Of a stretch of 61,643 nucleotides of DNA, positions 124 to 47,334 are shown piece after piece. Every line of letters starts with the position of its first letter. Within the stretch, counting starts at the first letter, position 1. This DNA comes from a virus. The stretch lies in the IMG/VR virus record IMGVR_UViG_3300010403_000005, positions 1-61,643 of that record. The stretch is one strand, 5' to 3'. Under the pieces are notes generated by a model. It was not told where the DNA came from and did not search any database. It was given only the letters and a program-made list of their open reading frames with translations. Position numbers and translations under genes: made by a program.

Positions 124-1023
124 GCCAGCGATATACGGCTTGCCGCAGGCCATCGCTTCCAGCACGGTCAGGCCCCAGCCCTCGCCCAGCGTCGTGTTGA
201 AGCCGACGTCAGAGGCCTGATACGCGGCCACCACGTACTCTTCCGGTGCACCGAGGAAGATGTTCTTCGGCTCCGCGAGGATCAACTTGCCTTGCACCCC
301 GCAGTAAGCCGCGAGCTGATCGCAGTTCACCTGAGTGGAGCTGCCCGGCAGCACGTGCAGATACAGGTAAGCGTCCTTGATTCCGCGAGTCCGAATCCAC
401 TCCGCAAAGTACATGATGGTGAGATCGATCCGCTTGCGGTTCTGGTTGCGGTTGACGTTGCAGACAATGAAGTCCGTATCCTTCACCGGAGCAATGCCGA
501 GCTTCGCTCTCGCAGCGGCCTTGTCTCCGGGCTTGTAGAGGTTCGTGTCCACGCCGAGCGGCACAACGGCAGTAGGCACGTTTTTCATGCCGCCCTCGAT
601 GGCCTCCTTGCGGCCGAACTCCGTCCAGAAGATCGCCTTCTTCAAGCCGTTCAGCATGTAGCCAGTGCAGTTCTTGCCCTCGATGGCGATGATGCCGACG
701 ACCGGTATGTCGCCGTGGCCATTCTTGTGCAGCTCCTTCTGGTAGACCGGCACGTTCCACGGGTTGGTCTGCAGCACGATCAGATCGGGCTTGACCTTGC
801 CGATCACTTCTTCGAGCCGACGAATGCCCAGCCCATCGCCACCAGAGAAGGCCGCGTAGATCGGGTAGTCGTAGTCAATCGGACCTGCCCGGTGATCACC
901 CCGGAAGTTGATCGCCAGCACGCTGACCTTCCAGCTCTTCTTCAGCTCTTCGAGCATGTAGTGCGAGGCTTTGCCGAAGCCGCTGCCGCACGCAGCGTCT
1001 CCGATAAACAGCAGTGACTTCAC
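1..1023 (-). CDS. Glycosyltransferase, GT4/GT1-type. This is the 5' part; the ORF continues across the circular junction into 61365-61520.
   Basis: Hand translation from GTG 1023 (GTGA overlap with the upstream stop) gives VKSLLFIGDAACGSGFGKASHY...LGEGWGLTVLEAMACGKPYIAGD, which contains the E-x7-E motif. It is absent from the ORF track because it runs off the window edge. Confidence 0.85.
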   Translation of the reverse strand, partial: MKSLLFIGDAACGSGFGKASHYMLEELKKSWKVSVLAINFRGDHRAGPIDYDYPIYAAFSGGDGLGIRRLEEVIGKVKPDLIVLQTNPWNVPVYQKELHKNGHGDIPVVGIIAIEGKNCTGYMLNGLKKAIFWTEFGRKEAIEGGMKNVPTAVVPLGVDTNLYKPGDKAAARAKLGIAPVKDTDFIVCNVNRNQNRKRIDLTIMYFAEWIRTRGIKDAYLYLHVLPGSSTQVNCDQLAAYCGVQGKLILAEPKNIFLGAPEEYVVAAYQASDVGFNTTLGEGWGLTVLEAMACGKPYIAGDYAALGEWGKDAIMLVPCISEGVMPDVRNMLGSVPSKDAML

Positions 1024-1574
1024 AGACTCACCCATCCCTTCGGAAAGCCGACGCGCACGATGCCGTCGGTGTGCCAGAGCTTCGGATAGACCACGATCTT
1101 TTCCGTATTGCGATTGAGGTATGCCGCCCACCACGAGAACGACGAGTTGGCGATGATGTTGTGCTTGCAGGCGGCCATGAGATTCATGTCCTGCAGGTCC
1201 GATTTGCCGTCGGAGATCTGAATGCGCGGGTTGCTATGCCACTTCTTTCGACACCACGACGGATCGTCCGAGCAGACGATGAACCGCTCGCCGGGAAACA
1301 GAGCCATCGCCCGTTCGTAGTAGTCGGTGTCCGACAGGCTGACGAAGGCCGCGTCGGTGAGGTAGTCCGTGCGCCGAACATGCACAGAGACCGCATCGAT
1401 CTGCGGGCCGATGCCCTGCCCGAACATGTCCTGAATCTCTTTTTCGTACTCGTGAAAGTAGTGCGGGTACTGCACGTAGACGTCGGGGATGTAACCCTTC
1501 TTCGCCTGCGCGAAGAGGTACGCCAGCTGAAACATCTGGTTGCCGAGTCGGCCCCAGTTCGTGATCGGTACCAT
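1020..1574 (-). CDS. Minimal GT11-family glycosyltransferase (alpha-1,2-fucosyltransferase-like), 184 aa
   Basis: All three GT11 signatures are present: GRLGNQMFQLAY, HVRRTDYL and ANSSFSWWAAYL. Confidence 0.8.
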   Translation of the reverse strand: MVPITNWGRLGNQMFQLAYLFAQAKKGYIPDVYVQYPHYFHEYEKEIQDMFGQGIGPQIDAVSVHVRRTDYLTDAAFVSLSDTDYYERAMALFPGERFIVCSDDPSWCRKKWHSNPRIQISDGKSDLQDMNLMAACKHNIIANSSFSWWAAYLNRNTEKIVVYPKLWHTDGIVRVGFPKGWVSL

Positions 1575-1804: not shown

Positions 1805-1820
1805 AGCAACTAGCGTGCCA
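1805..1820 (-). promoter_or_regulatory. Sigma-54-type -24/-12 promoter element
   Basis: The minus strand reads TGGCACGCTAGTTGCT, a perfect match to TGGCACG-N4-TTGCW. It lies in the 65-nt gap between the head-closure gene and the 61-aa gene. Confidence 0.65.
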
Positions 1821-4566: not shown

Positions 4567-4599
4567 CGAAAAAGTGCTGAGAGCCTGTTTAGCTCCCAG
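4567..4599 (-). terminator. Rho-independent-type terminator after the tail-tube-like gene
   Basis: The minus strand reads CUGGGAGC-UAAACAG-GCUCUCAG (8-bp stem with one G-U pair), followed by CACUUUUUCG. Confidence 0.6.
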
Positions 4600-4619
4600 C
4601 CGTACTTGCGCTCGATCCG

Positions 4620-5048
4620 TTAGGGGGTCATCACCTGACCGCCGCTCGGGCGAATGCTGATGCTCGCTTCCTGTGCGCCGTCCACCGGAGCCTTCGGAGC
4701 GATGTTCACGACGAATCCCGAGAAGAGCCACACGGCACCATCGGGGAAGTCGATCTCGTAGAGGTCTTTCGACCCAGTCGCCCACGCGTCGAGCAGTCCG
4801 GTGCTCGCGTCGTGAGTGTCTTCGCTGAACGGCAGCCAGTTGACCATGAAGGTCAGCTCGCCCTTCCGGCGAATGCCGACGACGTACGAGTCGTCGTCGC
4901 TGTTATGCGTTGTCGTGTCGATGGGCTTCCGCGTCAACGGTGGCGGAGTGATGTCTTTCAGCTCCGCAATCGGCGTACCGTTGCGCTTGACGATGGTGCC
5001 ATGAGCGGAGATCCCATTGCTCTCCGTTCCGGTATTGGTAACAGGCAT
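4620..5048 (-). CDS. Tail tube / major tail protein family (TP901-1 / lambda-V-N-like), located in the head module
   Basis: 142 aa. The pattern IDTTTHNSDD..GIRRKGELTF..IDFPDGAVWLFSGFV..ASISIRPSG is typical of sipho-type tube proteins. Confidence 0.6.
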   Translation of the reverse strand: MPVTNTGTESNGISAHGTIVKRNGTPIAELKDITPPPLTRKPIDTTTHNSDDDSYVVGIRRKGELTFMVNWLPFSEDTHDASTGLLDAWATGSKDLYEIDFPDGAVWLFSGFVVNIAPKAPVDGAQEASISIRPSGGQVMTP

Positions 5049-25277: not shown

Positions 25278-25467
25278 AGCGGCTGCCTCCAGAAAAGATC
25301 ACGATGGGGCCGTCAGGCAGGGCCTGTGGCCGGTTGGCGATGTTGATGTCGCTGTGGTCGGCCACAAGGATAGCTGCGGCCTGCGCAGGCGTCAAGTGCG
25401 GCTGCTGGGCGTACGCCGGGCTGGCGTACAAGGCGGCCAACAGCAAGAAGCGTGCCATACCCTTCAT
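25048..25467 (-). CDS. Small secreted protein; 3' end uncertain
   Basis: GAAGGAGGGAG lies upstream of ATG 25467. Signal peptide MKGMARFLLLAALYASPAYAQQ. The frame runs 230 nt into the next gene before the first stop. Confidence 0.55.
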   Translation of the reverse strand: MKGMARFLLLAALYASPAYAQQPHLTPAQAAAILVADHSDINIANRPQALPDGPIVIFSGGSRYADSEAPRALPSGHPWRHDVALWPWQPEDRAGRLHLQPFARQAHEGRAGAAFVRGAAADRGHAGAHEGRGHSSAQR

Positions 25468-25741: not shown

Positions 25742-25947
25742 GCGCTCTCCCTTTTGCTGACGATGCGAAGCTCCGCCGGATCGATGTCAGCGTCGATCTC
25801 GACGTCGCACGGAATGACCAGCGTGGCCTCCGTGCGTTCTCCGACTTCGGCGTTGAAACCCACGGCCACGGTCTCGATGGGATTGCCGTCGAGTGTCACC
25901 GTACCCGTGCCGTCCTGTTGCACGTGTACCTTCAGCTTGTGGCTCAT
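25738..25947 (-). CDS. Hypothetical 69-aa protein
   Basis: ORF track entry, coupled on both sides. Confidence 0.6.
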   Translation of the reverse strand: MSHKLKVHVQQDGTGTVTLDGNPIETVAVGFNAEVGERTEATLVIPCDVEIDADIDPAELRIVSKRESA

Positions 25948-26924
25948 GCGTTCACCTCCGCGAGTGCGGACTCGATGCGGGTCTTGGCGATGTTGAAGTA
26001 GTCCGGCTCGCGCTCGATGCCGATGAAGTTTCGGCCTTCGAGGATCGCAGCCACGCCAGTGGTGCCGCTGCCGAGGAACGGGTCGATGATCGTGTGGCCC
26101 GGCAAGCTCACGAGCCGGATCAGCCGACGCATGAGTTCGATGGGCTTGACGGTGGGGTGGAAGTTCTGCGCGAGGACCGGCTTCACGACCTTGCCCTTGG
26201 CGTTCGACGTCATGTGGCTCAGCCGGTTGTCCTTCTCGACCTGTGGCAGGTCCGCGCAGCCGTAGTCACGATCCTTCGGGGAGGGCTTCGGCACGAAGAA
26301 CGTACCGGGGTGCTCCGCGACGAGCGTGCTCACTTCCTCGAACGCTTGCACCAGTGAGTCATCGATGATGACGTCGGTCGGGTGCTTGCCGTCCTCGGCC
26401 TTCCATGTCTGTGCGTGCATCTGACCGAGACCCTTCTCCTTGAAGAGCTTGGTCAGGTTCTCGTTGCTCGGTACCCGGCCGACGAATACCGGCTCGCAGC
26501 CCGGCCGCAGGTCGTTCGGGTTCTTGACCTGACCGGACGCGTAGAGCCAGAACACCATGCGCGGGATGTCGTACCCGGCACGCATGAGCCCGCGATCCAC
26601 CGGGCCGATGGTGCGTCCGGCAGTGAACGCCAGCAGGTGACTGCCAGCCTTCAGCACGTTCTGCCGCATCGCATAGGCCCACTGCTCCGTGAACTTGGCG
26701 AATTTCTCCGCGTCGTCAGCGGCCGTGGTGTGCGAGCGGTTGTCGGAGAAGGAGTCCCACTCCTTCTCGCCCGCGAAGTCGAAACCGTACGGAGGGTCAG
26801 TGACGCAGGCATCAGCGCGAAGTAGGCCCACTCGTTTCATGCTGGCCGGAACTTCGCTGTATGGCCTGAGACCATCCGTCATCAAGGCGATGCTATCGCC
26901 GTTGAACAATTGCGCTGTGACCAT
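25944..26924 (-). CDS. DNA methyltransferase, N6_N4_Mtase family (beta class, probably N6-adenine)
   Basis: Motif IV VTDPPYG comes before motif I IIDPFLGSGTTGVAA. Confidence 0.85.
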   Translation of the reverse strand: MVTAQLFNGDSIALMTDGLRPYSEVPASMKRVGLLRADACVTDPPYGFDFAGEKEWDSFSDNRSHTTAADDAEKFAKFTEQWAYAMRQNVLKAGSHLLAFTAGRTIGPVDRGLMRAGYDIPRMVFWLYASGQVKNPNDLRPGCEPVFVGRVPSNENLTKLFKEKGLGQMHAQTWKAEDGKHPTDVIIDDSLVQAFEEVSTLVAEHPGTFFVPKPSPKDRDYGCADLPQVEKDNRLSHMTSNAKGKVVKPVLAQNFHPTVKPIELMRRLIRLVSLPGHTIIDPFLGSGTTGVAAILEGRNFIGIEREPDYFNIAKTRIESALAEVNA

Positions 26925-28497: not shown

Positions 28498-28574
28498 TGG
28501 TAGGCCGGGCAGGAATCGAACCTGCGACCCTCGGCTTAGAAGTCCGTCGCTCTATCCGACTGAGCTACCGGCCC
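28498..28574 (-). tRNA. tRNA-Arg (anticodon UCU) with encoded CCA
   Basis: The minus strand reads GGGCCGGTAGCTCAGTCGGATAGAGCGACGGACTTCTAAGCCGAGGGTCGCAGGTTCGATTCCTGCCCGGCCTACCA. The acceptor, D and T arms pair well. The anticodon stem has only 3 G-C pairs, flanked by A-A and A-G. Confidence 0.75.
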
Positions 28575-28687: not shown

Positions 28688-28843
28688 ATGGTTGGGCACG
28701 CGGATCTGCTGCATGGCCGGTGCCATCGGCGTACTGCGGTCATCGTCCACGGTTCTGTCCAGCGTGATGCGACCGAGATTGGGCACTGTCCTCTGGCACG
28801 GGCAGCGGTGAAGCGGTTCCGAGCAGCGCATGCAGATCGTCAT
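28661..28843 (-). CDS. Hypothetical 60-aa Cys-motif protein
   Basis: MTICMRCSEPLHRCPCQ... from ATG 28843 (ATGA overlap). The 3' end overlaps the tRNA-like element. Confidence 0.5.
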   Translation of the reverse strand: MTICMRCSEPLHRCPCQRTVPNLGRITLDRTVDDDRSTPMAPAMQQIRVPNHEGRPSWKA

Positions 28844-38007: not shown

Positions 38008-38526
38008 GCTTCATCTCCTCGCATCTGCTGCATGGCGCGGTCGGCCACGACCGCCATGCCGAGCTTCCGAGCGGTCCGCCGTAGGACAGCCAATTCCATC
38101 CGGTTGTCGGGCGTGCCTCGGAAGAGATGAGCCGGGTTCAGGCAGGCACCCTTGGCCGTGCTGCTGTGCCCGTTCCGGCCACACGAGTGCAGCAGGTCTT
38201 CGTGTCCTCGCAGGTCCGGACCCTGCGCGGGTACGACGTGGGTGATCCGCCAGACCACTCGCGTGACCTTGATCATGACCCGGTCCTGTTCGCCCGCCAC
38301 GCGCACGGTGACGTTGCGCTCGGTCGGATCGTCCGGTGACCAGAGCAGGCAGGGGGAGCGAAGCGCAGAAGGCGTCGAACTCAGCCACCGAGCACCGGCC
38401 AAAACAGATGTCGTTGGCCTTGTCGAAGACCGCCTTGAGCAGTTGAGGTTGATCGACGCTGTGCAGCAGTTCGGCAATGACCTGCTTGTCGATCCGGAAG
38501 TTGTGAGTGTCTCGGCCTCTAGCCAT
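38004..38526 (-). CDS. HNH endonuclease split by a 1-nt frameshift at a C5 run
   Basis: The N-terminal part MARGRDTHNF...AEFDAFCAS is in the frame of 38011-38526. The C-terminal part CLLWSPDD...HSCGRNGHSSTAKGACLNPAHLFRGTPDNR is in the frame of 38004-38477. Deleting one C of the run at 38352-38356 joins them. Confidence 0.65.
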
Positions 38527-39616
38527 CGATGTGCTCCTTCAGGAATCCGTTCTGTTTGAGTCGTGACACCAGCGAGGCCGGGAACTGCACGCCCAGCTCG
38601 GTGAGCCTTGGCCCAAGGGCCTCGCAGATCTCACCACTCGTCAGTGCCTTCCGGTCATTCACCGTGCCGAACAGGTCGTGGACTGCTTGGGCGGCCTCCG
38701 ACTTCGGCCAGTCGTCGTCCTTGCCGAGGCAGAGGGCGACGCGCCGCTTGGCTGGTGGAGCGGTGCGCTTGGCGCGTGGTTCGGGCGGGCCTTGCGGAGG
38801 CACGCTTCGCACGTGTCGATCTCCGGGTACGGTTCCTCCCTGCACGCGTTCATCGACAGGATCATCCACCGGCCGCAGAGGCTCCGGCCCTCCCTGAAGA
38901 AGTGCTGCCGGGTCGCGTTGATCAGAAAGTTCCAGCCCTGCTTGATAGGCATTCTTCTCCTCCGCGTAGGTTTTGAACTTGTCGCCCCGGCGGTAGAACG
39001 CACCGATGAAGGAGCCTTCCGAGTCGGAGTAGACGAAGACCGACTCTTCCTTCCCGGTCGTGACTGCCGCGATGGCTTTCGCGTGCGCCTGCTCGGCGTT
39101 GAATGGTCCCTGCACCCGCTCGGCCTTGCTCCCCTCGGAGCCGACGAGTGAGTACGGCCCGCGATGCCGCATGTAGATCTCGAAGAAACTGCGCGTGGGC
39201 ATGTCGAGTCTCCAGTTGAATGATGTCAGGAGCGGTTCGAGCGCGTGGATGAAGCCCCAGCCGTGGCCCATCTTCTTCCGGCGAGCGTGGTCGAATACGT
39301 GCGCTGCCTCGTGGAGCACGAGCCCTACCCGCAGGCGGCCGGTCTCCGGCCGGGGCAGGCTGATCCGATATGGCAGTCGATTGCGCGTGTTCGGAGCGTA
39401 GGCGTGGCCCCGGCGGCTGCCGAAGATCAGAGCGGTCTCCGGCATCGAGCAGAAGCGCTGGAGCCGGTCGAGAATCGCTTGCGCCTGTTCCGGGGTACAC
39501 AGAGTGGCGTGCGACTCGATCAAATGGTGGAGAAAGTGTTTCTCCCCGGCTCGACGCAATACGCCCTCGTACTCGGCGCGGCGAGTCAGCTTCACCAGTA
39601 GGCGTGCGCTGATCAA
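38519..39616 (-). CDS. HExxH metalloprotease-like N-terminal domain, low-complexity middle and winged-helix-like C-terminus (365-aa open frame, TTG start)
   Basis: VGLVLHEAAHVFDH. The C-terminus reads LTSGEICEALGPRLTELGVQFPASLVSRLKQNGFL. The codon bias of the middle ~190 nt favours another frame. Confidence 0.55.
   Translation of the reverse strand: MISARLLVKLTRRAEYEGVLRRAGEKHFLHHLIESHATLCTPEQAQAILDRLQRFCSMPETALIFGSRRGHAYAPNTRNRLPYRISLPRPETGRLRVGLVLHEAAHVFDHARRKKMGHGWGFIHALEPLLTSFNWRLDMPTRSFFEIYMRHRGPYSLVGSEGSKAERVQGPFNAEQAHAKAIAAVTTGKEESVFVYSDSEGSFIGAFYRRGDKFKTYAEEKNAYQAGLELSDQRDPAALLQGGPEPLRPVDDPVDERVQGGTVPGDRHVRSVPPQGPPEPRAKRTAPPAKRRVALCLGKDDDWPKSEAAQAVHDLFGTVNDRKALTSGEICEALGPRLTELGVQFPASLVSRLKQNGFLKEHIDG
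38659..38952 (-). CDS. ORF nested in the +1 frame inside 38519-39616: Cys-motif (zinc-ribbon-like) protein
   Basis: GGAGGAG-AAGA-ATG at 38952. Translation gives MPIKQGWNFLINATRQHFFREGRSLCGRWMILSMNACREEPYPEIDTCEACLRKARPNH. Third-position G/C is about 56/60 here versus about 30/60 in the host frame. Confidence 0.5.
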   Translation of the reverse strand: MPIKQGWNFLINATRQHFFREGRSLCGRWMILSMNACREEPYPEIDTCEACLRKARPNHAPSAPLHQPSGASPSASARTTTGRSRRPPKQSTTCSAR

Positions 39617-39809
39617 GCGTGCTGGCCTTCGCGGAGGTTCAAACGGGCAGCGACCAGTCGGTCGCGTGCGTGGTCACCGGTCGGCTGCAGCGGGTGGCGG
39701 TTGGTGCGCTCCTTCAGGATGTCGCGGAGCAGCGTCCGCACCACGACCGGGCCGCCGGTCAGGTCCAACGCGTGCAGCGTGGTGGTGATTCGTCGGTCGA
39801 GAGGGTTCA
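39613..39809 (-). CDS. Hypothetical 65-aa protein
   Basis: GTG 39809 (GTGA overlap). The stop overlaps the TTG start of the next gene. Confidence 0.5.
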
Positions 39810-39989
39810 CTTGGTCTCCTTCTCGTACTTGGTGGCCGCGAGATCTTCCATCTTCTTGGTGCAGGCCGGGCACATCGAGTGGCTGACTTCGTTGCCCGCC
39901 TCGATGGCGGCCTTGGTCTTCTCGCGGGCGTCGGGGCACCAACCGCACACTACCACAAGCGGCTTCGTAGGTTTCTGGTTTTGGCTCAT
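39807..39989 (-). CDS. First leftward gene: 60-aa zinc-ribbon protein
   Basis: MSQNQKPTKPLVVVCGWCPD...SMCPACTKK. The ATG lies 13 nt downstream of a -12-like element. Confidence 0.65.
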   Translation of the reverse strand: MSQNQKPTKPLVVVCGWCPDAREKTKAAIEAGNEVSHSMCPACTKKMEDLAATKYEKETK

Positions 39990-40000
39990 GCCCTTCCATT

Positions 40001-40018
40001 GTGCAACCGGTGTGCCAA
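40001..40018 (-). promoter_or_regulatory. Sigma-54-type -24/-12 element (proximal leftward)
   Basis: The minus strand reads TTGGCACACCGGTTGCAC, followed by 13 nt and then ATG 39989. Confidence 0.6.
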
Positions 40019-40055
40019 TGGAGATCCCGCGTAAGTGCTAGACGGCTGAGCCTCC

Positions 40056-40073
40056 GTGCAAGCCGTGTGCCAA
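40056..40073 (-). promoter_or_regulatory. Sigma-54-type -24/-12 element (distal leftward, tandem copy)
   Basis: The minus strand reads TTGGCACACGGCTTGCAC. It matches the proximal copy at 16 of 18 positions. Confidence 0.5.
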
Positions 40074-40179
40074 CAAGTGCGCTACAGATGTGAGACGGAA
40101 TCTCGGAATCGGTCACTTCGGGCTGGCCCCAGTCTAGGTCAGATGCGGCGTTTCTGGCCCAATTGCGCCACATCCGGGC

Positions 40180-40196
40180 TTGGCACGGACCGTGCT
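40180..40196 (+). promoter_or_regulatory. Sigma-54-type -24/-12 element (rightward)
   Basis: TTGGCACGGACCGTGCT (one mismatch: GTGC for TTGC), followed by 13 nt and then ATG 40209. Confidence 0.55.
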
Positions 40197-40208
40197 GTAA
40201 GGAAGGGC

Positions 40209-40427
40209 ATGCGAAAGACCTACGGACGCGGACGCGGTGGGATGAACCGGGCCGAGAAGCTCGCCCGGAAGACCGAGTGGAACAAGGCGATCAGCGAGGG
40301 CCGAGTGGTGAACTTCGGAGAAACGGTTCGGTCCTACAACAGCGCGGAGGCCGCCCGGATCGCCTGCGAGGCGGCCAAGGCGGATGGCTTCGACGCCTTC
40401 ATCGTTCCGGCGGAGTTGGCCCAGTGA
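40209..40427 (+). CDS. First rightward gene, hypothetical 72 aa
   Basis: MRKTYGRGRGGMNRAEKLARK... An alternative start is ATG 40242. Confidence 0.6.
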   Translation: MRKTYGRGRGGMNRAEKLARKTEWNKAISEGRVVNFGETVRSYNSAEAARIACEAAKADGFDAFIVPAELAQ

Positions 40428-41958: not shown

Positions 41959-41975
41959 TTGGCATGCCGGTTGCT
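41959..41975 (+). promoter_or_regulatory. Sigma-54-type -24/-12 element (internal rightward)
   Basis: TTGGCATGCCGGTTGCT, followed by 13 nt (GTATGAACGGGC preceded by T) and then ATG 41988. Confidence 0.55.
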
Positions 41976-41987
41976 GTATGAACGGGC

Positions 41988-42653
41988 ATGGAGAACAGCA
42001 GCATGACGAAAAAGAACGCCAAGACGCAGCTTCGGTCGATCTGCCCGGCCTGCTTCAACCATCAGGCCCTCCGCCACGGCCGGATGGTGCAGCACGGCTA
42101 CACCCGGCCGGACGGCTACTACGCGAACATCGGCACCTGCCACGGCACGGGCAAGGCCCACTTCGGCACCCCCGAGGGCCGGGATGAGGCCGCCAGCATC
42201 TCGGCTGGCCTCAAGCGGAACGCCAAGAGCGTGACCGCCACTGCCGCCAAGGTTCGCGCAGGAGACGCCGAGACCACGGTGTACGGCAGCAAGCACGAAG
42301 GCGGCCGGTTCATCACGGTGGCGATCCCGGCCCCGACAAGCAGCGAGCGCGAAGCCTACGCCCGGCAGCTGGACTACGAAGCGAAGAGCTGCATCGAGGC
42401 CGCCAAGGAATACGACGCCCGAGTGGCCGCTTGGGAGCCGATGGAGCCGGTCGAGGTTCCGGTCGAAGAGCGCAAAGCCACGGTCCACTTCCGGGCCTAC
42501 ACCTACAGCAAGAGCGGCCACAAAGCCTGCGCAGCCTCCGCGATGGGTGCGATGCGCGGATACGCCCTGATGACCGAAAAGACCGCCGAGGTAACCTGCG
42601 AACGCTGCAAGCAGCGTCGGTCCTACCTCGCAGCGGTGGCGGAGGGCAAGTGA
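41988..42653 (+). CDS. Hypothetical 221 aa
   Basis: ORF track entry with a Cys motif (CPACFNH...CHGTG). Confidence 0.7.
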   Translation: MENSSMTKKNAKTQLRSICPACFNHQALRHGRMVQHGYTRPDGYYANIGTCHGTGKAHFGTPEGRDEAASISAGLKRNAKSVTATAAKVRAGDAETTVYGSKHEGGRFITVAIPAPTSSEREAYARQLDYEAKSCIEAAKEYDARVAAWEPMEPVEVPVEERKATVHFRAYTYSKSGHKACAASAMGAMRGYALMTEKTAEVTCERCKQRRSYLAAVAEGK

Positions 42654-45644: not shown

Positions 45645-46036
45645 GGGGCCGACTTGGTTTCGACGGAATCGAGAATCGCGGGACTGCATGCGGTGCTGGC
45701 GGAAGGCACCTTAATCTCAGACGCAACACATCAAATGGCAACCAGCCTTTGAAGATGGCGGCCTAACACCCGCCCTCCACTGGCGCAGCTGAACCCCGAT
45801 AGGCTGCGCTGGTGTCATCGACTCGGGGTGGTGGAGGGTGATGCGGCGAGAGCCGGTCGCCCCTGTAAGAACCTTGGTCGGCTAACCCGGTAATGCCATG
45901 CCGCTTAGAACGGGGTGGAGAGTGGCGGGAACCAAGGACGAAGGAGCAAGGCGGATGACCCACGTACGGGTCAAGCATGTAGACGTTTCGTAGGTTGCGG
46001 TTTCGGACTGGGGTTCGATTCCCCACGGCTCCACCA
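45645..46036 (+). ncRNA. ssrA: tmRNA (ssrA), one-piece, 392 nt including CCA
   Basis: 5' GGGGCCGACTTGGTTTCGACGG and 3' GGACTGGGGTTCGATTCCCCACGGCTCCACCA. The acceptor stem has a G3-U70 pair. An internal tag frame reads ...AAC ACA TCA AAT GGC AAC CAG CCT TTG AAG ATG GCG GCC TAA. Confidence 0.9.
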
Positions 46037-46324: not shown

Positions 46325-46665
46325 TCCTCCCCGCAGCCACCTACCGTAAAGCCTGACACGGCCCGCTCGGGCTTGCCTAACGCGCTCTCTACCCGGCAGA
46401 ACGCCTCCGACGAGCCGCACGGCACGTGATCGATCAACATCACATGGGTCACAGCCGCCCGGTCGCCCTCCAGATCTCCGCCTGACGTCCGCAGGCCCTC
46501 GATCCCCATTTCCAGCCAGCGGTGATCGGGATCGCGGGGAACGCTGCACGTGAGCCGCAGGGTGCCTCCAGCGAGGATCGTACGCGGGTAGGCCGTGGCC
46601 CGGAGGCCGGGATCGCCAGCGGCTGAGCTAGCAGCCAGCAGGAGGGCGATGCATGCAAGTTTCAT
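46300..46665 (-). CDS. Small secreted protein (121 aa)
   Basis: MKLACIALLLAASSAAG signal from ATG 46665. No clear Shine-Dalgarno. It converges on and overlaps the previous gene by 25 nt. Confidence 0.45.
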   Translation of the reverse strand: MKLACIALLLAASSAAGDPGLRATAYPRTILAGGTLRLTCSVPRDPDHRWLEMGIEGLRTSGGDLEGDRAAVTHVMLIDHVPCGSSEAFCRVESALGKPERAVSGFTVGGCGEDQDSPFTR

Positions 46666-46982
46666 GCCAAAAGAATAACACATCTGGTGATCCGTTTTCC
46701 CGCGACAGAGCGCGTGTGTGGGTGTACCAAATGCGACTGACAGGCGGTACACGAAAGGTTTAACCTAGCTTCCGATGAGCACGAGACTCCAAGCCCGGCG
46801 GCCAACGTTGGCCGGACACGGTCGAGCGGCCGGAACAGCAGCCCCTGCCGCCCGGTCGGCAGCGGCCTTCCCACGCAGAGCAGAAACTGCCCTACAAGTG
46901 GAAGAATTACGGACTTGTGATGCCAAGGTTGTAATCGACTCATCCGTGCAAAGTGCGCAATCCACGGCACTTAGCAGAAACG

Positions 46983-47011
46983 TTGATCTGGCACGGACCT
47001 TGGAGTATCCT
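46983..47011 (+). promoter_or_regulatory. Promoter candidate: sigma-70-like TTGATC-N17-TATCCT overlapping a degenerate sigma-54-like CTGGCACGGACCTTGGA
   Basis: It shares the 11-mer TGGCACGGACC with the element at 40181-40191. Its -12 position reads GG, not GC. Confidence 0.4.
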
Positions 47012-47088
47012 AATTGAAACACGCGGGCGGCTTGAATGACCAAGCCGACCCGACTCGGTAGACGGAACGCATGAAGGAGAACGACACC

Positions 47089-47334
47089 ATGACGATCAAA
47101 GCCAACCTGCTCACCACCAAGCATCCCCGCACGGGCTACAAGCTCAAGGGCCGCAAGTCGCTGCCCAAGACGCTGCCGGAGCGGCCGATGCAGGTAGCCA
47201 AGTTCCTCCAGAAGCACCCCGGTGCTCCCCGGCCGCGTATCGCGGAGGCCCTCAACGTCAGCATGAACGCGGTGTCCGGAGCGATCCACCTGCTCAAGGA
47301 AGAATCGCTGCTCGACCAGATCGCCCTTCCGTAG
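47089..47334 (+). CDS. Winged-helix / HTH DNA-binding protein (candidate regulator)
   Basis: AAGGAG lies upstream of ATG 47089 (the ORF track starts at 47071). Contains PRIAEALNVSMNAVSGAIHLLKEESLL. Confidence 0.6.
   Translation: MTIKANLLTTKHPRTGYKLKGRKSLPKTLPERPMQVAKFLQKHPGAPRPRIAEALNVSMNAVSGAIHLLKEESLLDQIALP

Follow-up and report, generated by a model that had tools for sequence, protein, structure and literature searches.

Start-codon-fused sigma-54-type promoter candidates at the divergent junction of an uncultivated tailed phage and its relatives

Introduction

Transcription from sigma-54 promoters does not begin before an ATP-driven activator has opened them. The early promoters of the Streptomyces phage phiC31 reportedly exist in several highly conserved, unusual copies; to our knowledge Streptomyces lacks rpoN. 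The closest described phage system is Pseudomonas phage YuA, whose -24/-12 sigma-54 promoters are described as shown experimentally (Ceyssens et al. 2008, J Bacteriol 190:1429, cited in PMC10914365) and whose GenBank record (NC_010116) bears three annotated '-24/-12 consensus' promoters in the virion and lysis region. Here we examine a 219-nucleotide (nt) divergent intergenic gap (positions 39990-40208) of the IMG/VR virus record IMGVR_UViG_3300010403_000005, the full 61,643 nt of which we call the window, together with the -24/-12 elements in this gap, which are probably host sigma-54 promoters predicted to give near-leaderless mRNAs.

The leaderless genes mapped in B. japonicum are preceded by sigma-70-type promoters with an extended -10 element (TGnTA); the same paper points to a similar motif ahead of leaderless phage genes and remarks that leaderless genes have no described promoter class of their own (PMC4842269). 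Fusion of a -24/-12 promoter to a start codon therefore appears to be undescribed, and we found no account of one.

Results and discussion

The -24/-12 elements of the divergent gap

The sequence-only reading of the window had placed three sigma-54-type 17-mers in the gap, at 40002-40018 and 40057-40073 on the minus strand and at 40180-40196 on the plus strand, and all three are present. Within the pattern TGGCAC-N5-TTGCW, the GG and GC dinucleotides lie exactly 10 bp apart, as in sigma-54 promoters. The gap itself measures 219 nt as read, between ATG 39989 (minus strand) and ATG 40209 (plus strand), and both starts are picked by an independent gene caller, whose calls were taken from the public contig. 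At both proximal elements exactly 13 nt separate the GC from the ATG (ACAATGGAAGGGC and TGTAAGGAAGGGC), again as had been noted; this equals 12 nt counted from the end of the 16-mer, the measure used below.

The pattern TTGGCAC-N5-KTGCW has three matches in the window against 0.03 expected, a number reached in none of 100 shuffles, and TGGCAC-N5-TTGCW with at most one mismatch has nine against 1.76 expected. We also scored YTGGCACGrNNNTTGCWNNw (15 positions counted), which is reportedly the extended sigma-54 consensus of Barrios and co-workers from 1999; seven window sites match it at 13 or more of the 15 positions, against 1.08 expected.

The proximal leftward element, P_L1 (40002-40017, minus strand; TGGCACACCGGTTGCA), is followed by 12 nt and ATG 39989. 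In tandem with it, 55 bp upstream, stands the distal leftward element P_L2 (40057-40072, minus strand; TGGCACACGGCTTGCA), which agrees with the consensus at 12 of 15 positions and has no ATG at the fixed offset. The rightward element P_R1 (40181-40196, plus strand; TGGCACGGACCGTGCT) agrees at 14 of 15 positions and precedes ATG 40209 by 12 nt. A further rightward element, P_R2, lies inside the rightward arm (41960-41975, plus strand; TGGCATGCCGGTTGCT), 12 nt ahead of ATG 41988. Here the recurrence of the spacing at 41960-41990, as proposed in the sequence-only reading, holds for the geometry, with an ambiguous start, since the gene caller favours the ATG at 42003, 15 nt downstream and in frame, which is preceded by a GGAGAA Shine-Dalgarno (SD) sequence. 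An exact protein look-up finds the 216-amino-acid (aa) product from 42003 on record and not the 221-aa product from 41988.

Conservation in related phages

Relatives were found through the 365-aa protein encoded next to the junction (38519-39616), which has 36 homologues in metagenomes. Searches of IMG/VR with a single protein or with the exact promoter pattern gave no match, but the family alignment did retrieve relatives; those compared comprise six long contigs (36-57% protein identity) and further IMG/VR relatives (33-35%). The gene order around the divergent junction is common to all fetched relatives, and the promoter-ATG architecture is present in at least eight of them besides the window phage. 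Motif and spacing are both conserved: in nearly every relative, TGGCAY-N5-NNGCW is followed by exactly 12 nt and an ATG, to the left and to the right of the junction as well as within the arm of small genes.

In 206 kb of clade DNA, 23 of the 54 core sites have an ATG exactly 12 nt past the 16-mer (P about 1e-30). Of 50 core sites in unrelated bacterial DNA (488 kb), none has an ATG at this offset, nor does any of the four in YuA and Brevundimonas phage StAshley. The clade consensus reads yTGGCACG-N4-tTGCA-cTAg-N5-GGC-ATG, and its agreement with the sigma-54 consensus holds at positions that were not used in selecting the sites, namely the Y before TGG (Y-27, 72%), the G after TGGCAC (G-20, 72-80%), the T before GC (T-14, 55-57%), the W after GC (W-11, 96%) and the W three positions further on (w-8, 87%).

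One relative, L006 (SRR21686420 contig, 54% GC), has retained the divergent TGGCAC-N5-CTGCA elements, but in place of the fused ATG its leaders run to about 30 nt and carry AAGGAGG; this makes the leaderless fusion a trait of a subclade. In L004 (6096-6064, minus strand) and L005 (2177-2257, plus strand), some promoter-fused ATGs open very short open reading frames (ORFs), of 10 aa and of a hydrophobic 26 aa, respectively, that come before the next gene and are possible leaderless mini-ORFs.

Distribution of the element over the window

A position weight matrix (PWM) built from 19 sites of the relatives only was scanned over the window, where P_L1, P_L2, P_R1 and P_R2 score 15.2, 10.0, 17.8 and 18.0, respectively. 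The best seven matches (41958+, 40179+, 25438-, 46987+, 39998-, 28706- and 1801-) all score above 11, with the 99.99th percentile at 8.8, and each points in the direction of the next gene. All seven fall outside mapped coding sequence, non-coding DNA making up 11% of the window in our gene map; the match at 25438 is probably within an unmapped signal-peptide gene, and if it is counted as coding the non-coding share is 6/7 (P about 1e-5). Equally good matches at a similar density in coding sequence, which would have told against the promoters first proposed, were not found.

Among the other candidates, the element at 28710-28725 (minus strand; TGGCACCGGCCATGCA; PWM score 14.9) lies within a gap of 360 nt; a tRNA-Arg(TCT) gene and the genes after it come about 135 nt further downstream. 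The element at 1805-1820 (minus strand; TGGCACGCTAGTTGCT; PWM score 11.3) directly follows the upstream stop codon in a 45-nt gap, and its predicted leader of about 30 nt has a GAGGA SD sequence before ATG 1759; this arrangement is conventional, not leaderless. By their sequence context both elements look like ordinary sigma-54 promoters of later genes. A weaker candidate at 46989-47004 (plus strand; TGGCACGGACCTTGGA; PWM score 15.5), in which GG replaces the -12 GC, is located 66 nt upstream of an 87-aa gene (47071-47334) with a weak helix-turn-helix match.

Strong sigma-54-like matches are also present at 25442-25457 and 46654-46669 (both minus strand), within the first codons of signal-peptide genes (MKGMARFLLLAAL... 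and MKLACIALLLAAS...), both of which our gene map had missed. They could be a coincidence of codon usage or intragenic sigma-54 sites, as reported in E. coli. These two good matches inside coding starts are what can be said for chance similarity in a GC-rich genome as the source of the elements, a reading that the shuffles, the independently built PWM, the bacterial control set and the conservation among relatives effectively refute and to which we assign a negligible probability.

Start codons and predicted leaderless mRNAs

Fourteen promoter-fused ATGs coincide with independently called starts, and all 14 called starts are ATG. GGAG or GAGG is found upstream of 1 of these 14 starts, as against 158 of the 239 other genes on the same contigs (Fisher P = 1.4e-5). 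The first leftward gene (39807-39989, minus strand), whose 60-aa product is zinc-ribbon-like with a CxxC...CxxC pattern, has GGC directly 5' of its ATG and no GGAG or GAGG, and GGC likewise directly precedes the start codon of the first rightward gene (40209-40427, plus strand; 72 aa); neither product has a family match. GGC at -3 to -1 is conserved in 89-93% of cases and yields a pyrimidine-purine CA step at the ATG, such a step being a favourable transcription start.

For sigma-54 sites of E. coli, transcription is taken to start 19 bp past the centre of the motif (PMC4591121). Applied here, this rule points to the G or C of GGC, 1-2 nt ahead of the ATG; with this start or with one at the CA step, the predicted leader is 0-2 nt long. 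In S. meliloti, mapped leaderless mRNAs all start with AUG (PMC3616915). The exclusive use of AUG and the near absence of SD sequences would fit the definition of leaderless mRNAs, the 5' end here being a predicted one. The sequence-only reading had proposed that these mRNAs are leaderless or nearly so, which is supported at the level of sequence by the SD-less starts and the fixed spacing.

The strictness of the spacing to the AUG could instead mean that the element acts in RNA, as a 5' untranslated region or translation-initiation signal on transcripts that begin further upstream. Transcription from P_L2 would indeed run through P_L1, and an SD-like GGAAGG is present in two of the window spacers. 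However, the 16-mer is also found with no ATG at the offset (P_L2) or with SD leaders of 30-90 nt (1805 and L006), the spacers of the relatives have no SD-like sequence, and no upstream promoter is evident for P_R1, so that we regard an RNA-level role as very improbable. The use of the 16-mer with SD leaders at 28710, at 1805 and in L006 speaks for a promoter and against a translation signal.

Upstream boxes and candidate regulator sites

The gap has a central inverted repeat, GTGAGAC-GGAA-TCTC (40090-40104), which is centred at 40098 and is a candidate enhancer or operator. The midpoint between the two ATGs is 40099, so that about 110 bp separate the repeat from either start. Of the seven divergent regions examined, six have GTGAGAC/GTCTCAC as half-sites or as full palindromes, L008 being the exception, and all seven have shorter GAGAC/GTCTC matches. 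The most enriched hexamer upstream of the clade promoters is GTCTCA/TGAGAC, with 19 of its 73 occurrences in 1.4% of the sequence (p = 6e-18) and with representation in 10 of 16 regions. A second conserved box, TGTGGCGCAA in its minus-strand reading (40163-40173), lies about 10-20 bp upstream of P_R1 and is also found in the divergent regions of L003 and L005.

Other boxes were noted in individual relatives. Tandem GCGAAA(C) direct repeats, 11 bp apart and 35-60 bp upstream of many of the 16-mers, are present in L010, L004 and L005, whereas L007 and L008 instead have GGTGACCACATAAGTGG-type boxes, and the subclade boxes also include GGTCACC; this variation suggests subclade-specific activator sites. 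The known enhancer-binding sites of NifA (TGT-N10-ACA), NtrC and GlrR (TGTC-N10-GACA) were compared by inspection and none fits the GAGAC/GTCTC palindrome. A position about 110 bp upstream of both starts would suit an enhancer, and an operator for a phage regulator appears equally possible for the central repeat. The 365-aa HExxH protein encoded next to the junction could be a regulator.

Control regions of this kind usually carry operators, and P_R1 holds a 6-1-6 palindrome (GCACGG-A-CCGTGC), so that the -24/-12 repeats might themselves be operators of a phage or host regulator, such as a repressor or a Cro-like protein, with the true promoters being unrecognised sites of the sigma-70 family. 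Most of the sites, however, are non-palindromic; all of them face the downstream gene at a fixed distance from the ATG, which is not expected of operators; the GTGAGAC/GTCTCAC element already fills an operator or enhancer role as a separate palindrome; and the gap has no sigma-70-like hexamers. We therefore consider it distinctly improbable that the repeats are operators.

Which polymerase reads the elements

No sigma-70-type promoter was detected in the 219-nt gap, and genome-wide the sigma-70-type hexamer pairs are at chance level (10 against about 9 expected). A reading of the element itself as sigma-70-type or extracytoplasmic-function (ECF)-type was tried and rejected, as the six nt of the putative -35 hexamer are not conserved and a promoter scanner finds nothing there. 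The sequence-only reading had recognised no activator ORF in the phage, and this holds as far as Pfam is sensitive enough for small ORFs that have no known relatives: there is no GAFTGA-like motif in the six frames and no match to Sigma54_activat (PF00158) in about 50 ORFs. Sigma-factor and RNA polymerase domains were likewise not detected in these ORFs, which include every ORF of at least 140 aa.

The conservation nevertheless exceeds the sigma-54 core, with TA at -11/-10, GGC at -3 to -1 and the upstream boxes, and most of the small neighbouring ORFs have no family assignment. A phage-specific promoter that merely mimics the sigma-54 consensus could account for this, its reader being either the host core or sigma-70 polymerase redirected by an unrecognised phage protein or a divergent phage sigma factor or polymerase; this would parallel YuA, nine conserved promoters of which are inactive without phage factors. 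The match to sigma-54 is, however, specific and includes the unconstrained positions; neither an RNA polymerase nor a sigma domain was found; only the PolA, tape measure and fibre ORFs are large enough for a single-subunit RNA polymerase; and the elements head both arms, where they would need to be read before any phage protein is made, with no other host-type promoter detectable. A promoter class of the phage's own is accordingly unlikely in our judgement.

A model for transcription from the junction

We hypothesize that the divergent 219-bp gap is read by host RNA polymerase carrying sigma-54. The holoenzyme would form closed complexes at P_L1, P_L2 and P_R1, to be opened by an AAA+ enhancer-binding protein, most likely host-encoded, that would bind the mid-gap repeats about 110 bp from the starts. 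Initiation would then take place within the conserved GGC|ATG, at the G or C situated 1-2 nt ahead of the start codon. In both arms, the first gene would be expressed from a leaderless mRNA or one with a 1-2-nt leader, the ribosome binding the 5'-terminal AUG directly. Other copies of the element would start transcription anew within the rightward arm, at 41960, and upstream of later genes, at 28710 and 1805, in the latter two cases with SD leaders.

From the original sigma-54 proposal, the consensus, the intergenic location, the orientation and the fixed, conserved spacing all stand, while the use specific to 'early' genes and the lack of precedent do not. In particular, the motif is not confined to an early programme, as the 1805 and 28710 elements precede likely middle or late genes with SD leaders.

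Several points weigh against this model. Many -12 elements depart from TTGC (TGGC, ATGC, TCGC and GTGC). Degenerate -12 elements can loosen the dependence on an activator. The upstream boxes vary by subclade (TGAGAC palindrome, GCGAAA repeats, GGTCACC) and none is assignable to a known activator; a host activator for the first genes of the infection is mechanistically awkward; and the presence of rpoN in the host is assumed. If the A of the ATG were +1, the GC would stand at -15/-14, which is 2 nt beyond the canonical position. The GGAAGG of the two window spacers is SD-like and could be used by the P_L2 transcript, and the start at 41988 is ambiguous, as it competes with the SD-preceded 42003. 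Finally, we infer the 'early' status of these genes from gene order only.

A broader proposal, which we put forward tentatively and would rate at somewhat less than even, is that the siphoviruses of this clade dispense with sigma-70 promoters for their first genes and start the infection from divergent, start-codon-fused promoters for host sigma-54. If true, both the transcription of the earliest genes (enhancer-dependent, or possibly bypassing the activator through the degenerate -12 elements) and their leaderless translation would be non-standard. The phage could then switch off sigma-70 transcription and SD-dependent translation without silencing its own genes, or infection could be tied to the host state sensed by an enhancer-binding protein. 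A phage with its first genes under sigma-54 promoters must either exploit a host activator, and with it a link to host physiology, or bypass the activator requirement.

The promoter-ATG fusion would be a compact 32-bp expression module with no untranslated region; it is conserved across phages with 33-57% protein identity. It offers a testable handle on sigma-54 start-site selection, on the efficiency of leaderless translation in the presumed Gram-negative hosts, and on the escape of a phage from its own shut-off of host transcription. The pattern TGGCAC-N5-TTGCA-N12-ATG could also serve as a signature for annotating gene starts and for predicting rpoN in the hosts of these metagenomic phages.

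Genome setting and host clues

The window is the complete or near-complete genome (61.6 kb, 62% GC) of an uncultivated tailed phage; the identical sequence is recorded in ENA as a 61,661-bp metagenomic contig and is also found within a Logan assembly. A nucleotide search of deposited phages with the window gave no match. The minus strand bears the genes for a family A DNA polymerase, an SNF2 helicase, a D5-type primase, the terminase, portal, major capsid and tape measure proteins, and a TIG-domain fibre, whereas the rightward arm, from 40209 to about 47300, consists of small ORFs with no family matches. From this layout of genes on the two strands, 39990-40208 is the sole divergent junction of the genome.

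The neighbouring 365-aa protein (38519-39616, minus strand) has an invariant HExxH, a SprT-like metalloprotease motif, and in its family the C-terminal SLVSRLKQxG motif is also invariant (alignment A1). Scanning 185,579 species genomes with the clade family alignment gave no homologue of it, and no member of the family was found outside this phage clade. Among cultured phages, those with the closest relatives of individual window proteins (23-38% identity) infect Proteobacteria. StAshley was considered as a host clue and rejected, as only head genes are held in common and the motif is absent from it.

A full-length, one-piece transfer-messenger RNA (tmRNA) gene lies inside the rightward arm of small genes (45645-46036, plus strand; Rfam RF00023, 114 bits, E = 7e-44) and is also found by ARAGORN. 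The frame for its tag is an atypical one (ATSL*, or, in another frame, GNQPLKMAA*), and the gene resembles bacterial tmRNAs at the tRNA-like ends only. Its 5' pattern matches 73 genomes, mostly of Betaproteobacteria and Myxococcota and also of Bifidobacterium, with the similarity limited to the universal tRNA-like ends. The tRNA-Arg(TCT) gene (28498-28574, minus strand) is located in the 360-nt gap mentioned above.

GANTC (CcrM) sites are modestly under-represented genome-wide (195 against 335 expected under a dinucleotide model) and weakly enriched in control regions. By the same model, GATC is over-represented in the whole window (521 against 331 expected) and CTAG under-represented (40 against 112), and the phage encodes an N6/N4 DNA methylase (25944-26924). 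Two strong hairpins resembling intrinsic terminators, with 13-bp and 10-bp stems (2874-2907 and 4576-4600, both minus strand), come after the major capsid gene and after the gene at 4620-5048. The operon downstream of the 1805 element contains, among virion genes, a gene for a family 11 glycosyltransferase (fucosyltransferase-like; 1020-1574, minus strand).

Comparison with known systems

The strategy had been proposed as undescribed, which YuA contradicts as a general statement; what appears to have no precedent is its use at a divergent, presumably early junction, the leaderless fusion and the clade-wide conservation. The window phage resembles YuA in being a virulent siphovirus with a GC-rich genome of about 60 kb that has a family A DNA polymerase, no RNA polymerase and no enhancer-binding protein of its own, and in its use of host sigma-54, which for the window phage is the predicted case. 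YuA was nevertheless rejected as a relative, as only three proteins match those of YuA or M6, at 23-30% identity, with PolA at 23%. The sigma-54 sites of YuA are those of its late region, its early region using sigma-70 promoters. Its genes are all on one strand, it has neither the geometry of an ATG at 12 nt nor a strong match to the search pattern, and its promoters were tested experimentally, those of the window being predicted from sequence.

The bacterial sigma-54 promoters, such as glnAp2, nifH, pspA and those of flagellar class III, share with the window elements the exact GG/GC spacing, the extended consensus and, some 100-110 bp upstream, a conserved inverted repeat, in the window a possible enhancer. 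They differ in having untranslated leaders with an SD sequence, where the start codon of the window genes is fused to the predicted transcription start. With leaderless mRNAs, such as that of lambda cI from P_RM and those of alpha-proteobacteria, the window genes share the 5'-terminal AUG (predicted here), the use of ATG only and the lack of an SD sequence. The promoters of the leaderless B. japonicum genes, however, are of the sigma-70 type, whereas the elements described here are of the -24/-12 type.

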